Source: an uncultured bacterium (GTDB taxonomy: Bacteria > Abyssobacteria > SURF-5). Taken from it: a stretch of DNA of 14,449 nt. The notes under the pieces were generated by a model. It ran no database searches. It worked only from the letters and a program-made list of their open reading frames with translations, and was not told the DNA's origin. Shown here piece by piece: positions 1 to 10,773 of this stretch. The stretch's first letter is position 1. The number at the start of each line of letters is the position of its first letter. The stretch spans positions 2,564 through 17,012 of the forward strand of contig CAZEBC010000079.1 in assembly GCA_964510165.1 (NCBI GenBank), written 5' to 3'. Position numbers and translations under genes: made by a program.

Positions 1-1646
1 AACACCTTGCCGTGCAATTGGCCCGCCTTGTACTCGCCCTTGTTCACGACCACGTGACCGTTGAGCACGACGTATTCGATGCCGACCGAATCCAATGTGG
101 GCCGCTTGATGGTTGCCCTGTCGATCACCGTGTCGGGATTGAAGACGACGATATCGGCAGCGTAACCCTTCTTTAAGAGGCCGCGCTCCTTGAGGCCCGC
201 GCGCGAGGCTGGCAGCGACGTCATCTTGCGCACGGCTTCTTCCAGCGGCATCAGCCCGAGTTCTCGCACATAGTGGCCGAGAATGCGGGGATAATTCCCC
301 CATGCATTCGGATACTGCCAGCCGCTCGGCGCGATGATGCAGTCGGTCTCGAACGAGTTGAGCGGATGCGCGAGCACGCGCCTCAGCACCGATTCATCCT
401 TCTCGTTTCCGCTGTATTGCGCCAGGAAGATGCGCGCGAGCACCTTGCTTTCGACCACCAGATAGCAGTAGGAATCGAACGGGTCTTCGCCGCGTGCCTC
501 GGCGATCTCGCGGATGCTCATGCCCTCGTACTGCGTGAGCTTGGGCGAGCCGCCCCACATGAGGATCAGGTCGTCATAGCCGAACTGGAGCATCCCTCTC
601 GCCATGTCGAGTTCGCCCCGGATGCGCTCGCGCGTTTCCGGATTCTGCAGATTATTGATCAGGTCGGGCAGCGCCCACGCGGGGAAAATGACCGCGATGG
701 TCGAGATGCCGATCGTGTAGGCGTAGGCGTCGAAGCCGACGTCCACGCCGCGCTTGACGGCGGCCTCGATCTCGCCCAGCACCGCGTCGGTCGTTTCGGC
801 CCAGGTTTTCTCGCCGACGAAGATGAGGTGCGAAATTTGCAGCGGCTGGCCGGTCTGCTCGCCGACCCTGATGAAATCCTTGACCGAGCGAATGTTGTGC
901 GGCTCGCCGCCGATCTCCTCGTACGCGGGCGAAACCCAGCTATAGGCCTGCAAGTGTGAGGGGAACATGGCGTTGTATTCCTTCGCCAACTTCGCGAACG
1001 CGATGATCTCCTCCTGTGGGCTGAAAATGCCGGGCGAATATCCAAGCCCGGTCGAGATGCCGATTGCGCCCTGCTCGAGACTTTGCCGCGCAAGACGCTT
1101 CATTTGCTCCAGCCCTTCGCGATTCGGGGGCGTCGTATCCTCTCCCTTGACGGCGACGTGGATTGCGCCGTGACCGACCAGTTCCGCGATATTGAACGCC
1201 AAACCCTGCCTCTCAATGTGGTCGAGAAACTGACCCATCGTTTCCCATGGGAATATCTCCTCCATGCTCGCTCCTTTGGAGAGCTGCTCCCCCATCAACA
1301 GCAAAGCCGCCCGCCGAAGCGCAATGTCGCTGTGCTGTCTGGAAAGCGGCGCGGGCGAGAAACCGCAGTTGCCGGTGACCATCGTGGTGATGCCTTGTTT
1401 GACCATCGGGCTGAGGCGGTCGCTGTGGTTCGGGTCAATGACGGGCCAGTCGAAATGCGAGTGGATGTCAATGAAGCCGGGCGTGACGGCGAGGCCCGAT
1501 GCGTCGATTTCGGTCTCCGCCCGCGCGCCGGACAGATCACCGAGGGCGGTGATCTTGTCGCCGCTTAGGCCGATGTCGGCCCGCTTCCCCTTCTTGCCGC
1601 TGCCGTCAATCACGGTCCCGTTTCGAATGATCACGTCAAGAGCCAT
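1..1646 (-). CDS. N-acyl-D-amino-acid deacylase (D-aminoacylase) family metal-dependent amidohydrolase; 3' end runs off the window (partial)
   Basis: Manually translated from the ATG at 1646 (SD GAAAGGA upstream): MALDVIIRNGTVIDGSG...PGFIDIHSHFD...QGITTMVTGNCGFSPAP...LVGHGAI...GISTGLGYSPG...SHLQ...QISHL...FETD...AWGNYPRILGHYVRE...EAVRKMTSLPA...GIEYVVLNG. The N-terminal, central and C-terminal segments I translated are all in one frame. Likely missing from the ORF track because there is no stop inside the window. Confidence 0.92.
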   Translation of the reverse strand, partial: MALDVIIRNGTVIDGSGKKGKRADIGLSGDKITALGDLSGARAETEIDASGLAVTPGFIDIHSHFDWPVIDPNHSDRLSPMVKQGITTMVTGNCGFSPAPLSRQHSDIALRRAALLLMGEQLSKGASMEEIFPWETMGQFLDHIERQGLAFNIAELVGHGAIHVAVKGEDTTPPNREGLEQMKRLARQSLEQGAIGISTGLGYSPGIFSPQEEIIAFAKLAKEYNAMFPSHLQAYSWVSPAYEEIGGEPHNIRSVKDFIRVGEQTGQPLQISHLIFVGEKTWAETTDAVLGEIEAAVKRGVDVGFDAYAYTIGISTIAVIFPAWALPDLINNLQNPETRERIRGELDMARGMLQFGYDDLILMWGGSPKLTQYEGMSIREIAEARGEDPFDSYCYLVVESKVLARIFLAQYSGNEKDESVLRRVLAHPLNSFETDCIIAPSGWQYPNAWGNYPRILGHYVRELGLMPLEEAVRKMTSLPASRAGLKERGLLKKGYAADIVVFNPDTVIDRATIKRPTLDSVGIEYVVLNGHVVVNKGEYKAGQLHGKV

Positions 1647-1699
1647 GATGGAGTCCTTTCATTGGTGTGAGCTTTGGGCGCAGAAGTTGTGCGAGTCCG

Positions 1700-1728
1700 A
1701 TTATAATTGAGGGGCGGCCAAAATGGAA
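1700..1728 (-). promoter_or_regulatory. Candidate sigma70 promoter for the deacylase gene
   Basis: Perfect TATAAT on the minus strand (1705-1700) with a weak -35 TTCCAT (1728-1723) at 17 bp spacing, about 55 nt upstream of the ATG. Confidence 0.4.
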
Positions 1729-1758
1729 GAGGCGCGGCGCTATTTTCATTCACATCTC

Positions 1759-1788
1759 TTGTCAATGGATGCAGTTTAAATGTACTAT
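1759..1788 (+). promoter_or_regulatory. Candidate sigma70 promoter for the PolB gene
   Basis: TTGTCA (1759-1764), 18 bp spacer, TACTAT (1783-1788), in an AT-rich patch ending 16 nt before the ATG at 1805. No obvious SD. Confidence 0.5.
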
Positions 1789-1804
1789 GAAAGCGTGATG
1801 CGGC

Positions 1805-3988
1805 ATGATCAAGGGATGGCTGTTCGACATATATCCCGATGAGCGCGGAATGGCGCTGTGGATAATTGATGCCGAGGGCCGGCGCGTGCGCCTCTCGGAC
1901 CCTTATCGGCCATCGTTCTTCGTCGCGGGCGCGCCGAACGCGCTCAGGCGCGTCAGGGAGAGCATCCTCACAAAGAAGCTTTCGGCCTCGTTCCGGATGA
2001 CCGAGCGGCGTGATTTCTGGATGGGCCGGGACAAGCCCGTGCTGGAGGTCAGCGCCGACTGCCCCGCCTTCGATCCCGCCGTGAAACATGCCGCTTCGGT
2101 CAGCGGCGTCGAACTGTTCAACTGCGACATTCCGCTGGCGCAGATGTATCTATATGAGAAGGGCCTGTTTCCGCTGGCGTCTTGCGAGGTCGAGCAGTCT
2201 GCCAACGGCAACGTTTCTTCCATCCACACATCGGACCCGCCGTCGGAGATTGACTACTCGCTGCCGCCGCTCGAGACGCTCAAGCTCTCGGTTGCCAGTG
2301 ACGGGATAAACCCCAACTACGGCGGCGAGCGCTGCAACCTGAGGATGGAGGTCGGCGGGCGCGAATATGTGCTCGAAGAGGACGAACTGCTGGATACAGT
2401 CGAGGACACGCTCGTCCGGCACGATCCCGACCTGATCCTCACCGAATGGGGCGACTCGTTCATACTTCCACGCCTGTTGCAGATGGCGCAGGCGCGCGGC
2501 CGCTCTCTTTCCCTCAATCGGGACGCCGGCCGGAAAATCGGCATCCGCAAGGAAGTCTCCTATTTTTCGTACGGTCAGATCGTCTATCGGGCGCCCGCGC
2601 GAACCCTGTTCGGGCGCTGGCACATAGACGTGAAGAACTCCTTTATCGCGTCGGAAACGGGACTGGAGGGCCTGTTCGAGATTGCGCGCCTCACCAGGAT
2701 TCCAATCCAGCGCCTTGCGCGCACCTCGCCCGGAACCGGCATTTCGTCCATGCAGCTCGATATGGCGATGCGCGACGGAATCCTCATCCCCTGGCACAAG
2801 CGGATGCCGGAAGATTTCAAGAGCGGCCTCGACCTGCTCACCGCCGACAAGGGCGGCCTTGTGTACCTGCCGAGGCCGGGCCTGTACGAGGACGTGATGG
2901 AGATAGACTTCGCCTCGATGTATCCGGCGATCATGGTGAACCATAATATCTCCCCCGAGACCATAAACTGCTCATGTTGCGAGGGCGAGCCGGTTCCCGA
3001 GATAGGCTATCATTCCTGCCGAAAGCGGCGAGGGCTTGTGCCGCGCGTGCTCGAGCCGATCTTGTGGAAGCGCCGCACCTATAAGGAACTGTCCAGACGC
3101 GCGGACGATCCAGACCTCAGAGCCGTGTATGACCGGCGGCAGACCGCGCTCAAGTGGATGCTGGTGACATGCTTCGGATATCTGGGCTACAAGAACGCGC
3201 GGTTCGGCCGGATCGAGGCGCATGAGGCCGTCACCGCGCTGGGCCGCGAGAAGCTGCTTCAGGCAAAGGAGATAGCGGAGCGTCGCGGCTTCGAGCTGGT
3301 GCACGCCATTGTGGACTCGCTCTGGGTCCGAAAGCCCGGCATGACTCAGGCCGAGCAGGGCGGATTGCTTCGGGAGATCACTGAAGCGGTCGGCATTCCG
3401 ATCATGCTTGAGGGCAACTACAAATGGATCGCGTTTGTGCCCTCGAAAACCTCGCCCACGCTCGCCGTCGCCAACCGATATTTCGGCCTGTTCGACACGG
3501 GTCAGTTTAAAATGAGAGGCATCGAACTGCGCCGCTCCGACGTGCCGCCCATCGTTAATAGGATGCAAAAGGAGATGTTGCAAATACTCTCGTCCGTGGC
3601 GACTGCCGATGAATTCAGGCGGAAGGAGCCGGAGTTGCTCGGAGTCTTGAAGGAGTATCTCGCCCACCTCAAGAGCGGCGATGTTCCCGCGAGAGAGCTT
3701 GTCATCTCGCAGAAACTTTCCAAGAACCCCGCCGATTACAAGACCAACACCGCGATGGCGGCCGCCAGCAAGGCGCTGATCGCCTCGGGCAAAAGCCCAA
3801 AACCCGGCGAGCGGGTGAACCTCATCATCGTCGAGTCGGGCGCGCGCGGACAGGCCGTCAAGGCGATTCCCTATATCGCGGGCATGGAAAACGTTGACCG
3901 CTATGATGCCGACAAGTATGGCGAACTGCTCGTCAAGGCCGCCGAAACGATTCTCCTCCGGCGACTGAAGAAGGAGGATTATCTCTGA
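1805..3988 (+). CDS. Family-B DNA polymerase, archaeal PolB2/Dpo2-like clade, with degenerate 3'-5' exonuclease domain
   Basis: 727 aa. Motif A DFASMYP (D368), motif B KWMLVTCFGYLG, motif C HAIVDS (instead of YGDTDS), NRY (instead of KxY), RGIELRRSD, and a Cys cluster NCSCC...HSC. The ExoII-equivalent reads WGDSFIL rather than NxxxFD, and I find no ExoI DxE. Confidence 0.92.
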   Translation: MIKGWLFDIYPDERGMALWIIDAEGRRVRLSDPYRPSFFVAGAPNALRRVRESILTKKLSASFRMTERRDFWMGRDKPVLEVSADCPAFDPAVKHAASVSGVELFNCDIPLAQMYLYEKGLFPLASCEVEQSANGNVSSIHTSDPPSEIDYSLPPLETLKLSVASDGINPNYGGERCNLRMEVGGREYVLEEDELLDTVEDTLVRHDPDLILTEWGDSFILPRLLQMAQARGRSLSLNRDAGRKIGIRKEVSYFSYGQIVYRAPARTLFGRWHIDVKNSFIASETGLEGLFEIARLTRIPIQRLARTSPGTGISSMQLDMAMRDGILIPWHKRMPEDFKSGLDLLTADKGGLVYLPRPGLYEDVMEIDFASMYPAIMVNHNISPETINCSCCEGEPVPEIGYHSCRKRRGLVPRVLEPILWKRRTYKELSRRADDPDLRAVYDRRQTALKWMLVTCFGYLGYKNARFGRIEAHEAVTALGREKLLQAKEIAERRGFELVHAIVDSLWVRKPGMTQAEQGGLLREITEAVGIPIMLEGNYKWIAFVPSKTSPTLAVANRYFGLFDTGQFKMRGIELRRSDVPPIVNRMQKEMLQILSSVATADEFRRKEPELLGVLKEYLAHLKSGDVPARELVISQKLSKNPADYKTNTAMAAASKALIASGKSPKPGERVNLIIVESGARGQAVKAIPYIAGMENVDRYDADKYGELLVKAAETILLRRLKKEDYL

Positions 3989-4053
3989 ATTGATTCCGAC
4001 CCTGTCTTTGATTTGGCTGCAAAATCCGAGAATCCGCTCGTTTTCTCAGGAAA

Positions 4054-4167
4054 GTCATTGCGAGGAATCCCGCGAAGCGCGGGATGACGAAGCAATCTCG
4101 ATACAGCGCCGGGGGCCACCGACCGGGATTGCTTCGGTCGGAACTACGTTTCTCCCTCACAATGACG
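4054..4167. repeat. Nested palindromic REP/MITE-like element (GTCATTGCGAG...CTCnCAATGACG, CGTC-type)
   Basis: Outer arms GTCATTGCGAGG (4054-4065) / CCTCACAATGAC (4155-4166). Inner stems ATCCCGCG-AAG-CGCGGGAT (4067-4085) and CGAAGCAATCTCG (4088-4100) / CGGGATTGCTTCG (4124-4136). Confidence 0.8.
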
Positions 4168-4191
4168 AAGGCTCCGCAGCGGATTTTATCC

Positions 4192-4219
4192 TTGACATGC
4201 ACGGCTTCCGTGGCATAAT
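4192..4219 (+). promoter_or_regulatory. Sigma70 promoter for the PPIase gene
   Basis: TTGACA (4192-4197), 16 bp spacer, CATAAT (4214-4219), with extended -10 TG at 4211-4212. Confidence 0.72.
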
Positions 4220-4305: not shown

Positions 4306-5316
4306 ATGAAACCGAAAAAGTGGGTGTGCGCCTTGATTGCGGTGACCGTGGCATGCGCGACCGGTTTTGCGGTCGCAGAAGAGGAACAGAAAAGCGTCGA
4401 GGAACGAGCGGCAGTGGTCAACGGCGTTGTGATAACCAAGGCCGACTTTGAGCGCGAGGTGTCGCGCGTACAGCGCTCATTCATTGGGATGGGCGGCCCC
4501 CACGCCGACACAAAGATGTCTAAGCTCAGAGCGCAGGTTCTTGACAATCTCATCGAAATCGAATTGATTTACCGCGACGGCCTGGATTCGGGGATAGCCG
4601 TGGAGGGGCCGGCCGTCGAGGAGCAGGTCAACAGGCTTCGCGCGCGCTTCCCGAACCAGGACGAATTTGAGAAGGCATTGGGCCGCGCAGGGATGACTCC
4701 CGACACGCTCAAGGTGAACGTAGTCAGGGAGATGACTATTCAGCGATTCATCAACGAAAATTTCGCGGACGCGACAACCGTGTCGGATGAAGAGGCGAAG
4801 AAGTACTACGATGAAAACTCCCAAATGTTCATGCAGCCCGAGCAAATAAGCGCCAGCCATATCCTGATCAAGGTCGCGCCCGATGCCGACGAGGCGACGA
4901 AATCGGAGGCGCGGGCGAAGATGGAAGAATTGAAGAGCAGGCTTAAGGAGGGAGAAGACTTCGCCGCGCTCGCACAGGAGGTCTCAGAAGGCCCGAGCGG
5001 GGCGCAGGGCGGCGACCTCGGCTATTTCAGTCGGGGCCAGATGGTGAAGCCATTCGAGGATGCGGCCTTCGCATTGAACGTTGGCGAGGTGAGCGACATC
5101 GTCGAGACGCAATTCGGCTATCACATCATCAAGGTGGTTGACAAGAAGCCCGAATCGAAAGTCCCTCTCGAAGACATTCAGGATCGGGTCAAGGACTATC
5201 TGAAGCAGGAAAAAGTCAAGACCCAAGTGAGAGCGCACGTAGACGAGTTGAAGGCGAAAGCGGATATACAGAGATTCGTGACGGAATCCGAGGAGAAAAA
5301 AGAGGAGAAAAAATAG
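4306..5316 (+). CDS. Exported parvulin (PpiC-type) peptidyl-prolyl cis-trans isomerase / PrsA-SurA-like foldase
   Basis: 336 aa. Signal peptide (MKPKK plus hydrophobic stretch, AVA|EE); SurA-N-like [10 protein letters not shown]; parvulin motifs [47 protein letters not shown]. Confidence 0.93.
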
Positions 5317-5360: not shown

Positions 5361-5386
5361 GTAGGGGCGCCCCTGTTTGGGCGCCC
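5361..5386 (+). repeat. GTAG-tagged REP-like palindrome
   Basis: GTAG-GGGCGCCC-CTGTTT-GGGCGCCC: a GTAG tetranucleotide followed by a perfect 8-bp stem, lying intergenic. Confidence 0.72.
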
Positions 5387-5459: not shown

Positions 5460-6500
5460 GTGTATCGCCTGAAGTTCGATGAGCGGCTGTGCGTGTCATG
5501 TGAGAGATGCGACTGCCTCACGCGATGCCAATACATCAAGCTCGACCCTGAATCGGCCCGGAAGGAACGGCTGAAAATCGCGCGCGGCGAGGACTCGTTC
5601 GTGCTCCGCCGGTGTGTGACTTGCTATGCGTGCGAGGAGTATTGCCCGCACGGCAATCATCCATTCTATCAGATTGTGGAAGTCCAGGAAAAGCTGGGCA
5701 TCCACCCCGTGCCCAAGCCCATCGAGAAGCAGCAAGTCAGGATGATGGCGCCGGACGGGAAAATACAGCGCCGCGAACTCCAAGGCCCGATACTTGACAT
5801 GTGCGCATTCGGGATGTTCGAGAAATTCTCGATCCAAGGCAGCCTCTTTGAGGGCGTCTCGACAATTTCCGGCAACGATATCTTCTGCAACCTCATGTTC
5901 CTGCACTTCGCGCGCAACTCCGTCATCAGGGAAAGGCTGCCCAAGACCATCGCGAACATTCAGGAGTATTACCTGAATCCCAATCGGGCCGCCGAGATAA
6001 TCTGCTTCCATGATGAATGCTACGGCACGTTCACCTCGTGGGCGCCCGCTTTCGGCATCGAGGTCCCCTTCAAGCCCGTTCACTTTTTCGAGTTCCTGCT
6101 TGCGGAAATGAAGGAGCGCGCCAGCGACATCACGAAGATTCCGATGAAAGTAGCCTATCAGCGCCCGTGCTCGAACCGCCTGGTTCCCGAAACGCAAGGC
6201 CTCGTTGACGAAATCATTCAGCTCGTCGGCGCCGAGCGCGTCCGGCGGACGTATGACGGCGAGAACGCGCTCTGCTGCGGAGCGGCCATTTTGGGGTTGG
6301 GCGAGGACCGCCTGGCCGATGAAATCCAGAAGAAGAACATCCAGGACATGCTCGACGCGGGCGCGACGGCCTGCGTGTTCAATTGTCCGTTCTGCCTGAT
6401 CGCCCTCGGTGAGAGAGTCGCGCAGAACGGGTTGATGCCGATGCTCTTGAGCGACCTCTGCCGCCTGGCGCTCGGCGAGCAATTGAAAGGATGGGGTTAA
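5460..6500 (+). CDS. Fe-S oxidoreductase subunit (ferredoxin-like plus CCG domains; GlcF/HdrD-like)
   Basis: 346 aa, GTG start with strong SD AAGGAGG. Motifs CVSCERCDC...C and CVTCYACEEYCP; C-terminal CCG domain QRPC...CCG...CPFC; degenerate first CCG domain (FC...CFHDEC). Confidence 0.88.
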   Translation: MYRLKFDERLCVSCERCDCLTRCQYIKLDPESARKERLKIARGEDSFVLRRCVTCYACEEYCPHGNHPFYQIVEVQEKLGIHPVPKPIEKQQVRMMAPDGKIQRRELQGPILDMCAFGMFEKFSIQGSLFEGVSTISGNDIFCNLMFLHFARNSVIRERLPKTIANIQEYYLNPNRAAEIICFHDECYGTFTSWAPAFGIEVPFKPVHFFEFLLAEMKERASDITKIPMKVAYQRPCSNRLVPETQGLVDEIIQLVGAERVRRTYDGENALCCGAAILGLGEDRLADEIQKKNIQDMLDAGATACVFNCPFCLIALGERVAQNGLMPMLLSDLCRLALGEQLKGWG

Positions 6501-6503
6501 GCC

Positions 6504-7880
6504 ATGCCGCAGATATATGAGGCGCTGGCAGAGATAGTGGGGAGGCAATACGTCTCGGACCGCCCCGAGGAGCTTTTCATTTATTCGCGCGATTCGGGAA
6601 CGATGGACCCCAGGCAACCGGATTACGTGGTCGTTCCCAACACGCCGGAGGAAATCCAGGCCATCGTGCAGCTTGCGAACCGCGAAAAAGTCCCCGTGGT
6701 TCCCCTCGGCGGGGGACTTGTGCTCTCAGGCCTCTCACGACCGCTCAAGCGGGGCATCGTCATCGACATGAAACGCATGAACCGCATCCTGGAGGTGAAC
6801 GAGACCAGCCGGTATGCCGTCGTCGAGGCGGGCGTCTCACAGGGAATGCTGCAGGCATACCTCAGGAAGCATCACCCGAAACTGAAACATTCGATGCCCG
6901 ATTCGCCTCCTGCCGCCACGATTGCCGGCAATGTGCTCATCCACGGCTCCGGCCATCTCTCGCAGGCCACGGGTTTCCATTCCGAGATGCTCAACGCGCT
7001 TGAAGTCGTGCTGCCCACCGGCGAGATATGCAGGCTCGGCTCGTGCTCTACCACTCCCTACTGGTTCTCACGCGCCCCGTTGCCCGACCTTGCCGGACTG
7101 TTCCTCGGCTGGCACGGCACAACGGGCATTGTCACCAAGCTCGCCATCAAACTCTACCCGAATCCCGCCAAGAAAGATGTGATGATGTTTCTCACGGAGA
7201 ACCCCGAACATATGCCGGACGTGCTCCACAGGATAAGCGGGACCGAGATGGCCGAAGACCTCAATGTGTCGGCCTCGCAACAGCCGCATTACGTGGAAGG
7301 TCTTCAGGTTTCGCTCATCTACGTTACCGCCGATACCGACGGAGAAATGGAATTCAAGAAGCAGACTATCCGCGATGCGCTCCGAAGTTACGTGGATGAG
7401 AAAGAGGGCGGATTCCCGTTCGTGCCCACTTTTGCGAAGGGGCGCTTCCTCGAAACACCGCTCAAAGAGATGACCAAGTTCGCCGACACGAAGAAGGGCG
7501 GCGGCTTCGAGTACGTGGGCGCGATCATGCCCATCGAGCTGTTCCCGAAAGCCTACTGGAAAGGAATCGAGATCGCCGAGAAATACGACACACCCTACTC
7601 AATGGCGGTCCGCACCATCGGGCGCGGCCATTGCATGATGTTCGCCTACGCATACGCCTTCAATCGGGCCGATGACAATGACCGCCTCAAGGCGCAGAAG
7701 GCGCTCCATGAGAGCAATGCGGCGGCGCTTGAGCTGGGCGGAATCCCCTGGAAGGCCGAAGAGCCGGCCCAGAAGCTCATCCTACGTAAGATGGACCCCG
7801 AGACCGTCAAGCTCATGAAGAAGATTCGGGCCGTCCTCGACCCAAACGGCATCATGAATCCCGGCAACTGGGAGGTATGA
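6504..7880 (+). CDS. FAD-binding oxidoreductase, VAO/PCMH fold (GlcD / D-2-hydroxyacid dehydrogenase-like), substrate unknown
   Basis: 458 aa. PDYVVVP...PLGGG...IDMKRMNRILE...VEAGV...ATIAGN...LEVVLPTG...GTTGIVTK...LDPNGIMNPG. Confidence 0.9.
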   Translation: MPQIYEALAEIVGRQYVSDRPEELFIYSRDSGTMDPRQPDYVVVPNTPEEIQAIVQLANREKVPVVPLGGGLVLSGLSRPLKRGIVIDMKRMNRILEVNETSRYAVVEAGVSQGMLQAYLRKHHPKLKHSMPDSPPAATIAGNVLIHGSGHLSQATGFHSEMLNALEVVLPTGEICRLGSCSTTPYWFSRAPLPDLAGLFLGWHGTTGIVTKLAIKLYPNPAKKDVMMFLTENPEHMPDVLHRISGTEMAEDLNVSASQQPHYVEGLQVSLIYVTADTDGEMEFKKQTIRDALRSYVDEKEGGFPFVPTFAKGRFLETPLKEMTKFADTKKGGGFEYVGAIMPIELFPKAYWKGIEIAEKYDTPYSMAVRTIGRGHCMMFAYAYAFNRADDNDRLKAQKALHESNAAALELGGIPWKAEEPAQKLILRKMDPETVKLMKKIRAVLDPNGIMNPGNWEV

Positions 7881-7881
7881 T

Positions 7882-9045
7882 ATGGAATATCAAGACCTCA
7901 TCCATAGATGCTTCCGCTGCGGCTATTGCAAGTTCACGCGCGACTACCGCGATTTCAATTGCCCCACCTACAGGAAGTTCTGGTTTGAAACGTATTCGCC
8001 CGGCGGCAGAATGTGGCTGCTTAGAGGTATGCTCAACGGCGATGTCAAACCCTCCCAGCGACTCGCCGAGATATTCTATTCCTGCGTCACCTGCGGCAAT
8101 TGCGCTGAGCACTGCGTCTTCGAGTTCGGGCCTGACCTCGTCAACATCTTTGTCGAGGCCCGGCGGGAACTGGTCGAACGCGGGATGACGCCGCCCGCAG
8201 TCCGGGACTATCTCAAGGGTATCCACGTCCATGGCAACCCCTACAAACAGACTGATGGCCGAGGCGAGTGGGCACAGGGCCTCAACATCGCGCCGTACCA
8301 CGGGCAGGAATACCTTTTCTACGTCGGCTGCGTCGGCTCGTATGACGACAGGGGCAAACAGATGGCGCGCGCTGCGGCGAGTCTTCTGAGCGAAGCCGGG
8401 ATCTCCTTCGGCGTGCTCGGCGACAAGGAGCCTTGCGACGGGAACGAGGTCAGGCTGCTCGGCGAGTCGGGTCTGTTCCAGGAACTGGCGGAAAACAACA
8501 TAAAGATGTTCAAGAGCCTGGGCGTGAGGAAGATCATCGCGCTCTCGCCCCATGGATACAATGCGTTCAAGAAGAAATATCCCGCATACGGCGGAGATTT
8601 CGAGGTCGTGCACTACAGCCACGCGCTGGCCCAATTAGTCGCCGCCGGCACGCTCGCGCTCTCGGGACTCAAGGCCAAGGTCACGTACCACGACCCCTGT
8701 TACCTCGGCAGGCACAATGACGAGTTTGACGCCCCGCGCGAGATCCTCCGGGCCGTCCCCGGTCTTTCCCTCGTGGAGATGGAGAAAAACAAGAAAGACG
8801 CACTCTGCTGCGGCGGAGGCGGCGGCAATTTCTTTACCGAGATCATCGGCGGCGGCGAGGGAAGTCCGGCGCGCGTTCGACTGCGCGAGGCCGCCGAAAC
8901 CGGCGCGAACATGCTGGCGGTGGCCTGCCCGTACTGCGCCCGCATGTTCGAGGACGCGCTCAAAAGCGAATCGCTGGAGGGCGTCATCGAGGTGAAGGAC
9001 GTGGCTGAAATCGCTGTCATGGCCGGGCCTCGCCGGCCTGGCTGA
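7882..9045 (+). CDS. Fe-S oxidoreductase subunit (4Fe-4S dicluster plus two CCG domains; GlcF/HdrD-like)
   Basis: 387 aa. CFRCGYC...CP, SPGGR, CVTCGNCAEHC, YVGC, HDPCYLGR, CCGGGGG, CPYC. SD GGAGGT lies in the end of the previous gene (1-nt gap). Confidence 0.9.
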   Translation: MEYQDLIHRCFRCGYCKFTRDYRDFNCPTYRKFWFETYSPGGRMWLLRGMLNGDVKPSQRLAEIFYSCVTCGNCAEHCVFEFGPDLVNIFVEARRELVERGMTPPAVRDYLKGIHVHGNPYKQTDGRGEWAQGLNIAPYHGQEYLFYVGCVGSYDDRGKQMARAAASLLSEAGISFGVLGDKEPCDGNEVRLLGESGLFQELAENNIKMFKSLGVRKIIALSPHGYNAFKKKYPAYGGDFEVVHYSHALAQLVAAGTLALSGLKAKVTYHDPCYLGRHNDEFDAPREILRAVPGLSLVEMEKNKKDALCCGGGGGNFFTEIIGGGEGSPARVRLREAAETGANMLAVACPYCARMFEDALKSESLEGVIEVKDVAEIAVMAGPRRPG

Positions 9046-9069: not shown

Positions 9070-9834
9070 ATGGAGTTAATCCGGATCATGCCCTGTCTGG
9101 ACATGAAGGACGGTCGGGTTGTCAAAGGCGTTCATTTCGTTGACCTCAAAGACGCGGGCGACCCCGTCCAGAACGCGAGCTTCTACCAGAAAGAGGGTGC
9201 CGATGAACTCGCGATGCTCGACATCGCCGCCACCCTTGAGAATCGGAAGACGCGGCTGGAATGGGTCAAGGGCGTCTCTTCGGTCATCAGCATACCCCTG
9301 ACTGTCGGAGGCGGCATCTCCAGCCTTGATGATATCAAACTCGTTCTGAAAGCCGGAGCCGACAAGGTTTCCATGAACAGCGCCGCCGTCAAGGACCCCT
9401 CCCTCATAAAGCAGGCCGCGAAGAAATTCGGCCCGCAGCGGATCACCGTCGCTGTTGACGCGAGGCGCAACAAGCGGATGCCTTCAGGGTTCGAACTCGT
9501 GGTGTCGGGCGGCACAAAGCCCGTCGGCAAGGACGCTGTCGCCTGGGCGAAACAGTGCGAGGAACTGGGAGCGGGCGTGATTCTGCCGACCAGTATGGAC
9601 GCCGACGGCACCAAGGACGGTTACGATATCGAATTCACGAGGGCCATCTCCGACGCCGTTTCCCTGCCGGTCGTCGCGTCGGGCGGCGCGGGAACGCTTG
9701 AGCATTTCCTCGAGGCTGCCACGAAGGGTGGAGCGCAGGTATTGCTCGCCGCATCTGTCTTCCACTTCCGAATCCTGAGCATCAAACAGGTCAAAGAATA
9801 TCTTCGTGACAAGGGATTGAAGGTCAACTTGTAA
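9070..9834 (+). CDS. hisF: Imidazole glycerol phosphate synthase cyclase subunit HisF (orphan paralog)
   Basis: 254 aa. [78 protein letters not shown]. Confidence 0.93.
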
Positions 9835-9840
9835 CTTGAC

Positions 9841-10773
9841 ATGACAAAGCCCGGCATCCTGCTGCTTGTCGTTGCGGTGATGCTTTTCCTGCCGCTGTCC
9901 GAGGGTGTCGTATCGGACGAGCCGGGCCCGCCGCCGCTCCGCTATGGCAAGCCGAGGGCGATTGGCTCGCTGTCCGACCCGGAAATCAAGGAAAGCAGCG
10001 GATTGGCTCGCTCGCTCGTCAACCCCGGCGCGTTCTGGACGCACAACGACTCAGGCGACGTCCCGCGCGCATTTCTGATAGGTCCCACCGGAAAGACGCT
10101 CGCCACATTCTTGATAAGGGGCGCCGCTGCCGTGGATTGGGAGGATATCGCCTCGTTCAAATGCGACAACGGCGGCTGCATCCTGGTGGCCGACATAGGC
10201 GACAATAACGCGAAACGCGGATCGTGCACGCTCTACATTTTTCGCGAGCCGATTGTGGACCCGAAGCGCTCGCCGCGCGCTAAAAACCTGAACGTGTGGA
10301 AGACCATCTCGTTCACGTACGAGAACGGCCCCCAGGACTGTGAAGCGGTGGCGGTCGATCCTGTCAGCAACACCATATTCCTTACCGCAAAGGACGACGG
10401 CGCCACAGTATATCAATTGCCGTGGCCCAACCGCGAGAACCCCGGCCATATGACCGCCCGCGCGATTGCGCCGCTCGGCATTCCCGACGTTACCGCCATG
10501 GACATCTCCCCCGATGGAGCAAGAGCGATCGTGCTCACCTACATTGACGCCTACGAGTATGTCAGGGCAACAGACGAGACATGGGCCGAAGCGTTCTCCC
10601 GTGAGGGACGGCTGGTTTCGATGCCGCCCCGTATCCAGGGTGAATCCATCTGTTACGGCCCGGACGGAAAGACACTGTATCTCACGAGCGAAGGCGCGTC
10701 TCAGCCCCTCTGGGAGGTTCCCGCCGTCACCGGCGGCGATTTGGAAGTTCGCACGCCAAACATTTCGGAGTGA
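9841..10773 (+). CDS. Secreted beta-propeller-like protein (SdiA-regulated/phytase-like superfamily), function unknown
   Basis: 310 aa. N-terminal hydrophobic signal; repeated acidic blade motifs ESSGL, WTHNDSG, DWEDIA, ADIGDN, DCEAV, AMDISPDG, QGESIC, SEG. Confidence 0.7.
   Translation: MTKPGILLLVVAVMLFLPLSEGVVSDEPGPPPLRYGKPRAIGSLSDPEIKESSGLARSLVNPGAFWTHNDSGDVPRAFLIGPTGKTLATFLIRGAAAVDWEDIASFKCDNGGCILVADIGDNNAKRGSCTLYIFREPIVDPKRSPRAKNLNVWKTISFTYENGPQDCEAVAVDPVSNTIFLTAKDDGATVYQLPWPNRENPGHMTARAIAPLGIPDVTAMDISPDGARAIVLTYIDAYEYVRATDETWAEAFSREGRLVSMPPRIQGESICYGPDGKTLYLTSEGASQPLWEVPAVTGGDLEVRTPNISE

Follow-up and report, generated by a model that had tools for sequence, protein, structure and literature searches.

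Family-B DNA polymerases of group G2, or PolB2, are distinguished by a motif C with a single Asp and a conserved His, a D(K/R) motif before motif A, and a dead exonuclease (PMC7544198; statements on published work here and below refer to the accessible portions of each source), a classification repeated in PMC12926913. That polB2 occurs in bacteria together with arCOG07300, an inactivated radA, and lexA has been known since PMC4104785. According to PMC11791011, PolB2 reached bacteria by a single ancient transfer from archaea, the bacterial operon has the order iRadA-PPB2-PolB2, and the modelled complex (PolB2-iRadA-PPB2x3) is a predicted mutasome. The table of that study has 3,007 rows, including 1,823 full operons and 625 entries labelled "only PolB2", many of which, among the rows listed, are fragments from draft assemblies. 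The table scores the neighbourhood within +/-5 genes only, and the accessible main text says nothing of partners encoded at a distance in the same genome. Among PolB2 enzymes, only the archaeal Dpo2 of Sulfolobus has known activity: it is a mismatch and lesion extender that has no exonuclease and is active without partners when purified (PMC8764526). We found no experiment on the roles of iRadA or PPB2 in the papers cited above, and no split polB2 operon in the full-text literature outside subscription papers.

We analysed a 14,449-nucleotide stretch of DNA (the window), which lies on contig C79 of a genome that is 97% complete in 325 contigs (G000). Positions 1805-3988 (+) are a single open reading frame of 727 aa with no internal stops, encoding an intact family-B polymerase (PF00136, DNA_pol_B, 1.5e-40). 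All of the following features are on the same strand. Motif A has the catalytic Asp368 (DFASMYP; 2906-2908), motif B retains its Lys (RQTALK, K450), and motif C reads HAIVDS (residues 500-505; 3302-3319), in which the first Asp of DxD is replaced by Ile and Asp504 is retained. NRY (residues 557-559; 3473-3481) replaces KxY, as it does in operon-linked relatives. The PolB2-specific DK motif (D348-K349; 2846-2851) is the proposed contact for the N-terminal arm of PPB2 (PMC11791011, PMC7544198), and the loop at residues 331-345 (EDFKSG; 2795-2839) contains a predicted iRadA-binding motif, the role of which was proposed in PMC11791011. The 3'-5' exonuclease domain (approximately residues 155-300; 2267-2704) is folded in the model, and its catalytic acidic residues are absent. 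Pfam gave no exonuclease match in this protein, and in an alignment with Salmonella Pol II and a Deinococcus plasmid PolB, the ExoI motif DIETT aligns with SVASD, the FD of ExoII is FI (I220), and nothing clearly corresponds to ExoIII; the exonuclease motifs thus appear inactivated. These motifs are a hallmark of the PolB2 family and nothing peculiar to this copy, as operon-linked relatives are identical there. The AlphaFold2 monomer (pLDDT 92.2, pTM 0.89; built on an alignment of 82 of the 120 matches listed) has its lowest-confidence block at loop 331-345, which is also the core of the predicted interface described below. The best solved-structure matches in Foldseek are the 9N and KOD polymerases (TM 0.74-0.76, 22% identity).

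In a quick tree of 22 rows, whose branches are long and which lacks archaeal B1/B3 rows, the window protein falls into a clade of 18 rows that also holds two haloarchaeal plasmid homologues (SH-aLRT 99; we assigned the B2 label of these two rows from their motif C), and Pol II and three other PolBs fall outside it. The best NCBIfam model is NF004416, at 428 bits and under its cut-off of 516; the comparison with Pol II gave only 43 bits. Relatives that are 58-84% identical come from sources named Ca. Abyssubacteria, Hydrogenedentota, or Poribacteria. Three relatives classed as PolB2 in the accessible part of the PMC11791011 table are 64-70% identical to the window protein; the table has UCD58680.1 (70% identical), RJP21303.1, and MBI5116198.1 as LexA-iRadA-PPB2-PolB2 loci of group 1a, and a fourth close relative as "only PolB2". 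We assign the window protein on these grounds to bacterial PolB2, group G2. It has the motifs, dead exonuclease, DK motif, and iRadA-binding loop of the published bacterial system. Like the Dpo2 of Sulfolobales, it has a single-Asp motif C and no proofreading residues, but Dpo2 is from archaea, where its operon is induced by damage as a unit, whereas the window copy is known from sequence. E. coli-type Pol II (G1) and Thermococcales-type PolB3 share its family-B fold, yet they keep the DTD motif C and the exonuclease residues, neither of which it has.

The original prediction, made from the letters of the window, had placed Asp368, HAIVDS at residues 500-505, and NRY correctly, as the reading frame and the alignment confirm. 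It had also concluded that proofreading is lost, with which the replaced ExoI and ExoII residues and the missing ExoIII counterpart agree, and that the enzyme is a PolB2, on which motif C, the DK motif, the dead exonuclease, and a clade apart from Pol II converge. The phylogeny that it had proposed groups the protein with B2/G2 and away from Pol II, within the sampling given above. Its headline of an archaeal-type polymerase in a bacterium is true but not new, since the family and its occurrence in bacteria have been published as G2 (PMC7544198, PMC11791011).

Upstream of polB2, and divergent from it, lies a gene for an N-acyl-D-amino-acid deacylase-like amidohydrolase (3-1646, -; extending past the window edge), which takes the place that PPB2 has in relatives. 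Downstream, a multi-copy palindromic intergenic repeat (4008-4168) lies before a PpiC/PrsA-type PPIase (4306-5316, +), which has its own promoter-like site (4192-4219, 11/12) and lies outside the PolB2 system. No phage or integrase families were found by Pfam in the ten window proteins scanned (smaller open reading frames were left out), in line with the context first described for this locus: deacylase and PPIase flanks, no partner beside polB2, and no phage genes. Rfam gave no match within the window or in locus L018. The deacylase/polB2 junction is crossed by contigs from three of four sequencing runs, which come from three studies (window extents 600-3940 in X1, 1388-2077 in X2, and 600-1901 in X3; X1 may be the source data of the window), and a contig of the fourth run, X4, covers the spacer and scarcely enters the deacylase. 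Misassembly at the junction was therefore ruled out. A 1-base insertion at 3062 appears in a single X1 contig and a single X2 contig; at the threshold of 85%, these contigs may be from other organisms. Farther along the window are a GlcD/GlcF-like cluster of three genes (5460-9045, +) for a CCG-domain Fe-S protein, an FAD-linked oxidase, and a second CCG/4Fe-4S protein; hisF (9070-9834, +), isolated from other his genes; and a gene for a 310-aa protein (9841-10773, +), which begins like a signal peptide and matches no Pfam family. A CocE/S15-family hydrolase is encoded directly downstream of the latter.

Searching the contigs of the same genome with iRadA and PPB2 of a relative (G001) located both partners on contig C75. 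An intact iRadA (801-1493, -; 60% identical to the operon-linked copy of the relative, with a weak Rad51 Pfam match, E 1.2e-4) abuts an intact PPB2 (529-795, -; 72% identical, starting MGRT) and is overlapped by an intact lexA2 (1478-2080, -). LexA2 carries an Ala-Gly motif, which we take to be the cleavage site, and Ser/Lys motifs, presumably the dyad. The genome thus has the same partners as the published bacterial system, in the order iRadA-PPB2 behind lexA, but not the single operon iRadA-PPB2-PolB2, as polB2 is detached beside the divergent deacylase. The same genome has one dnaE and one dinB; no imuA was over the cut-off (recA was the sole match) and no SRAP was found in this 97%-complete assembly. 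The genome search that the original prediction had called for (partners, lexA, dinB, imuABC) therefore returned iRadA, PPB2, two lexA genes, and one dinB. A solitary polymerase working alone is contradicted by intact iRadA and PPB2 behind lexA, and the alternative offered alongside it, unlinked partners, is what we found, with polB2 on C79 and the partners on C75.

Approximately 190 bp past PPB2, where polB2 normally follows, a transposase frame that we label IS3-like (after an HTH_Tnp_1 match) is cut by the end of C75. A second partial copy in the genome is 98.9% identical, a feature that would suit an operon broken by a recent rearrangement, a reading to which we return below. No rve (PF00665) or HTH_21 (PF13276) match was found in the assembly, no contig end continues the C75 element, and no IS trace was found before polB2. 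Positions 1798-1807, ten letters that run up to and include the polB2 start codon, equal the core of a palindromic repeat just after PPB2 (C75, approximately 408-437). The genome has 45 copies of this word, 23 of them within the repeat family; the match is probably due to chance and possibly a trace of a rearrangement.

A putative promoter precedes polB2 (TTGTCA-18-TACTAT, 9/12; 1759-1788, +) and ends 16 nt before the ATG. When the 158-bp spacer was shuffled 5,000 times, a promoter-like site fell as close to the ATG in 4.0% of cases, and none of four operon-linked relatives has one before polB2. The site appears weak, and no Shine-Dalgarno-like GGAG/AGGA occurs within 20 nt upstream of the ATG. 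At least three of the four differences between the window and a 3,341-bp X1 contig cluster within the promoter-like spacer (1765, 1778, 1779), with one allele in X1 and X2, that of the window in X3 and X4, and both hexamers unchanged. The lexA2 promoter, on the other hand, is TTGACA-17-TATA(A/C)T in all eight genomes with lexA2, and its spacer holds a palindrome near GTATACAAATGTATAC in each (eight sites, after removal of a ninth row that duplicated G004). From its position and conservation, this palindrome would be the LexA2 operator. A matrix built on the eight sites scores them at 17.9-28.8 bits, as against -4.3 for the best site before polB2, a level attained at 5,365 of 4,166,280 positions in the genome.

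The second paralogue, lexA1 (C102:3143-3840, locus L038), has a direct-repeat box, TTCGCC-N5-TTCGCC, in its promoter. The box is present in six loci (L034, L037, L038, L039, L040, and L041), and no other strong copy was found in the window's genome, including before recA and dinB; for LexA2, the six best non-self matches in this genome are all inside open frames and give no sign of a wider regulon. The two LexA paralogues have unrelated boxes, and each is apparently self-limited. The LexA1 matrix gives 24.9-34.7 at its own sites and -4.1 at best before polB2, so that a LexA box before polB2 was ruled out for both paralogues.

PolB2 might still be damage-inducible after a real split if an unrecognised regulator or operator were involved. 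The lexA2 palindrome does have a partial match (AAATGTAC) that overlaps the promoter-like site, but in one allele, and the allele of X1 and X2 lacks even this partial match. The presence of a second LexA with a different box would also leave room for such control, yet its matrix, like that of LexA2, scores the region far below the training sites. We consider hidden damage control very improbable. The locus apparently departs from the published mutasome, in which polB2 is under a LexA operator, in that polB2 lies apart from lexA-iRadA-PPB2 and no LexA operator is recognisable before it.

We compared nine genomes of the same family. Five have polB2 orthologues, one of them a remnant. PPB2 is directly upstream in all four with a full-length polB2, and lexA-iRadA precede it as well in three of these; in the fourth (G009), lexA2 is cut and sits on a different contig, and no iRadA was found. 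The contiguous four-gene runs in relatives indicate that the four-gene operon is ancestral and the arrangement in the window derived; the system is easily lost. In two genomes (G002 and G007), lexA2-iRadA lie at contig ends and the rest of the system was not found. In G008, what comes after lexA2 is an in-frame fusion of the first 15 codons of iRadA with the end of polB2. The lexA2 promoter is intact there (C500:1-900, locus L029), and the fusion retains approximately the last 65 polB2 codons, as in a clean deletion of the mutasome that spared its regulator. No PolB2-system match was found in G003 (77% complete), and none to polB2, iRadA, PPB2, or lexA2 in G006 (97% complete), which has recA and, for either LexA paralogue, a weak S24 peptidase match only. 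With a deletion in G008 and no system found in G006, the PolB2 system appears to be dispensable in the family.

Family distribution also bears on the proposal that polB2 was horizontally acquired. An ancient transfer stands; a recent one was ruled out by the orthologues in five of nine family genomes together with composition, since the GC3 of polB2 (0.79) is like that of five neighbours (0.73-0.82) and thus argues against recent import. Gene order in the family is heavily shuffled. In G009, polB2 and the deacylase orthologue are on one contig, 15 kb apart, where an inversion would yield the head-to-head junction; the genes between them map to four other contigs of the window's genome, and the PPIase is elsewhere in G009. 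A single local inversion may or may not have been the origin of the junction.

A Ca. Abyssubacteria genome whose PolB2 is 84% identical to that of the window has polB2 (GAB4340245.1) on a contig of 87,791 bp, iRadA (GAB4341666.1) and PPB2 (GAB4341671.1) on a contig of 78,654 bp, and the deacylase (GAB4342807.1) on a third of 70,407 bp. The common name and the accession series suggest that these records belong to one genome. The FAD oxidase is on the polB2 contig, 15 accession units away; given a step of five, as from iRadA to PPB2, this gap would correspond to three genes, in the order of the window. We judge that the split is probably common to both genomes, although an assembly gap within an intact operon could look alike. 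Because the deacylase is on a third contig, the exact junction of the window is not demonstrably common to both.

These comparisons frame the chief alternative, in which a recent rearrangement broke the operon, polB2 is poorly expressed or silent, its genes are intact for lack of time, and loss is under way; the locus would then be a case of ordinary operon decay. The IS3-like fragment past PPB2 fits this account, as do the absence of both a LexA box and a Shine-Dalgarno-like sequence before polB2, the independent losses in the family (the fusion in G008 and the lack of matches in G006), and the shuffled gene order. The relative with 84% identity bears on it in both directions: its deacylase is on a different contig, but its polB2 and partners too are on separate large contigs. 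A split junction shared by strains of three studies, a promoter-like site that relatives lack, and a full 727 aa in each of the three sequence versions of the PolB2 cluster are harder to reconcile with a recent break. We regard this alternative as possible, if on the unlikely side.

The protein deviates from its relatives in none of 202 columns conserved in 24 homologues, which were picked by similarity to the query. Compared with its closest relative (P0003), only one of 117 differences falls in the 171 conserved columns, where 27.5 would be expected if differences were uniform; for iRadA, none of 36 differences falls in 35 conserved columns (the alignments hold 82 of 120 PolB2 matches and 43 of 76 iRadA matches listed). 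If the split is recent, this test mostly reflects the time before it. Divergence is similar among the three proteins, with identities to the closest relative of 83.9% (PolB2), 84.3% (iRadA), and 92.0% (PPB2). Among the within-species differences listed, both of those in polB2 change a residue, at variable columns (S126F and N134D), as do five of 14 in the PPIase and three of five in the deacylase, counts from which no ratio can be drawn.

The iRadA-binding loop and the DK motif are unchanged in the window protein. A predicted complex of PolB2 with the C75-encoded iRadA scored 0.76, as against 0.00 for the best of three controls, with contacts agreeing at 96% or more between runs and a partner pLDDT of at least 78; among solved complexes, 116 of 157 attain the mark for this score, as do 2 of 215 mismatched pairs. 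The predicted interface (F338-G341) matches the published model (PMC11791011). The score may stem from likeness to solved RadA/Rad51 filaments and from alignments of operon-linked relatives, and not from binding by the window copy.

Equally conserved, intact partners and an unchanged loop and DK motif at a predicted interface weigh against a PolB2 that acts by itself, as a constitutive polymerase for extension or repair, with iRadA-PPB2 retained for some other reason. Such an enzyme has a precedent in Sulfolobus Dpo2, which is active without partners when purified (PMC8764526), and polB2 is indeed not part of the lexA2 unit. The "only PolB2" class of PMC11791011, with its 625 rows, would add to this, but many of those listed are the draft-assembly fragments noted above. 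We think stand-alone action improbable.

We consider it somewhat probable that the intact PolB2 of this split operon continues to form a complex in trans with iRadA and PPB2 from C75 and acts as a lesion extender without proofreading. LexA2 would bind the palindrome in the lexA2 promoter, and its cleavage upon DNA damage would induce both partners, whereas polB2 would be expressed at a low level, independently of LexA, from its own weak promoter. If so, the supply of partners would gate the complex. PolB2 would dock on iRadA through loop 331-345, and the PolB2-iRadA-PPB2 complex would extend past lesions, with an extender chemistry assumed by analogy with Sulfolobus Dpo2 (PMC8764526). SOS control is likely left on the accessory subunits iRadA and PPB2. 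What is new is the split operon with its polymerase apparently outside LexA control, a modest departure in gene order from a known system. If this split system works, the predicted PolB2 mutasome does not depend on co-transcription, and damage control can rest on accessory subunits.

A more far-reaching reading, which we hold to be doubtful, is that the mutasome has been rewired, with PolB2 constitutive and escaped from LexA, the SOS switch acting only on iRadA and PPB2, and the arrangement kept across at least two species. Unstressed cells would then hold PolB2 alone, the damage-tolerant complex would form only once the partners were induced, and the genome would offer a natural experiment on the contribution of both partners. 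Many of the 625 "only PolB2" entries in the PMC11791011 table would in that case be split systems and not solitary enzymes. A PolB2 without neighbours needs a whole-genome check before it is labelled solitary.

Homologues of the polymerase vary in size and context. The PolB2 orthologues of G009 (L002:810-3788) and G004 (L003:3801-7055) are enlarged to approximately 990-1,040 aa by several in-frame insertions, which resemble translated intergenic repeats and keep the frame open. Two further homologues, P0084 and P0094 (921 and 1,215 aa), bear the additional Pfam families PF14890 and PF14528, presumably intein/homing-endonuclease domains. A homologue that is 37% identical lies beside a phage integrase in four Leptospira phage records, among them KF114878.1 (locus L103).
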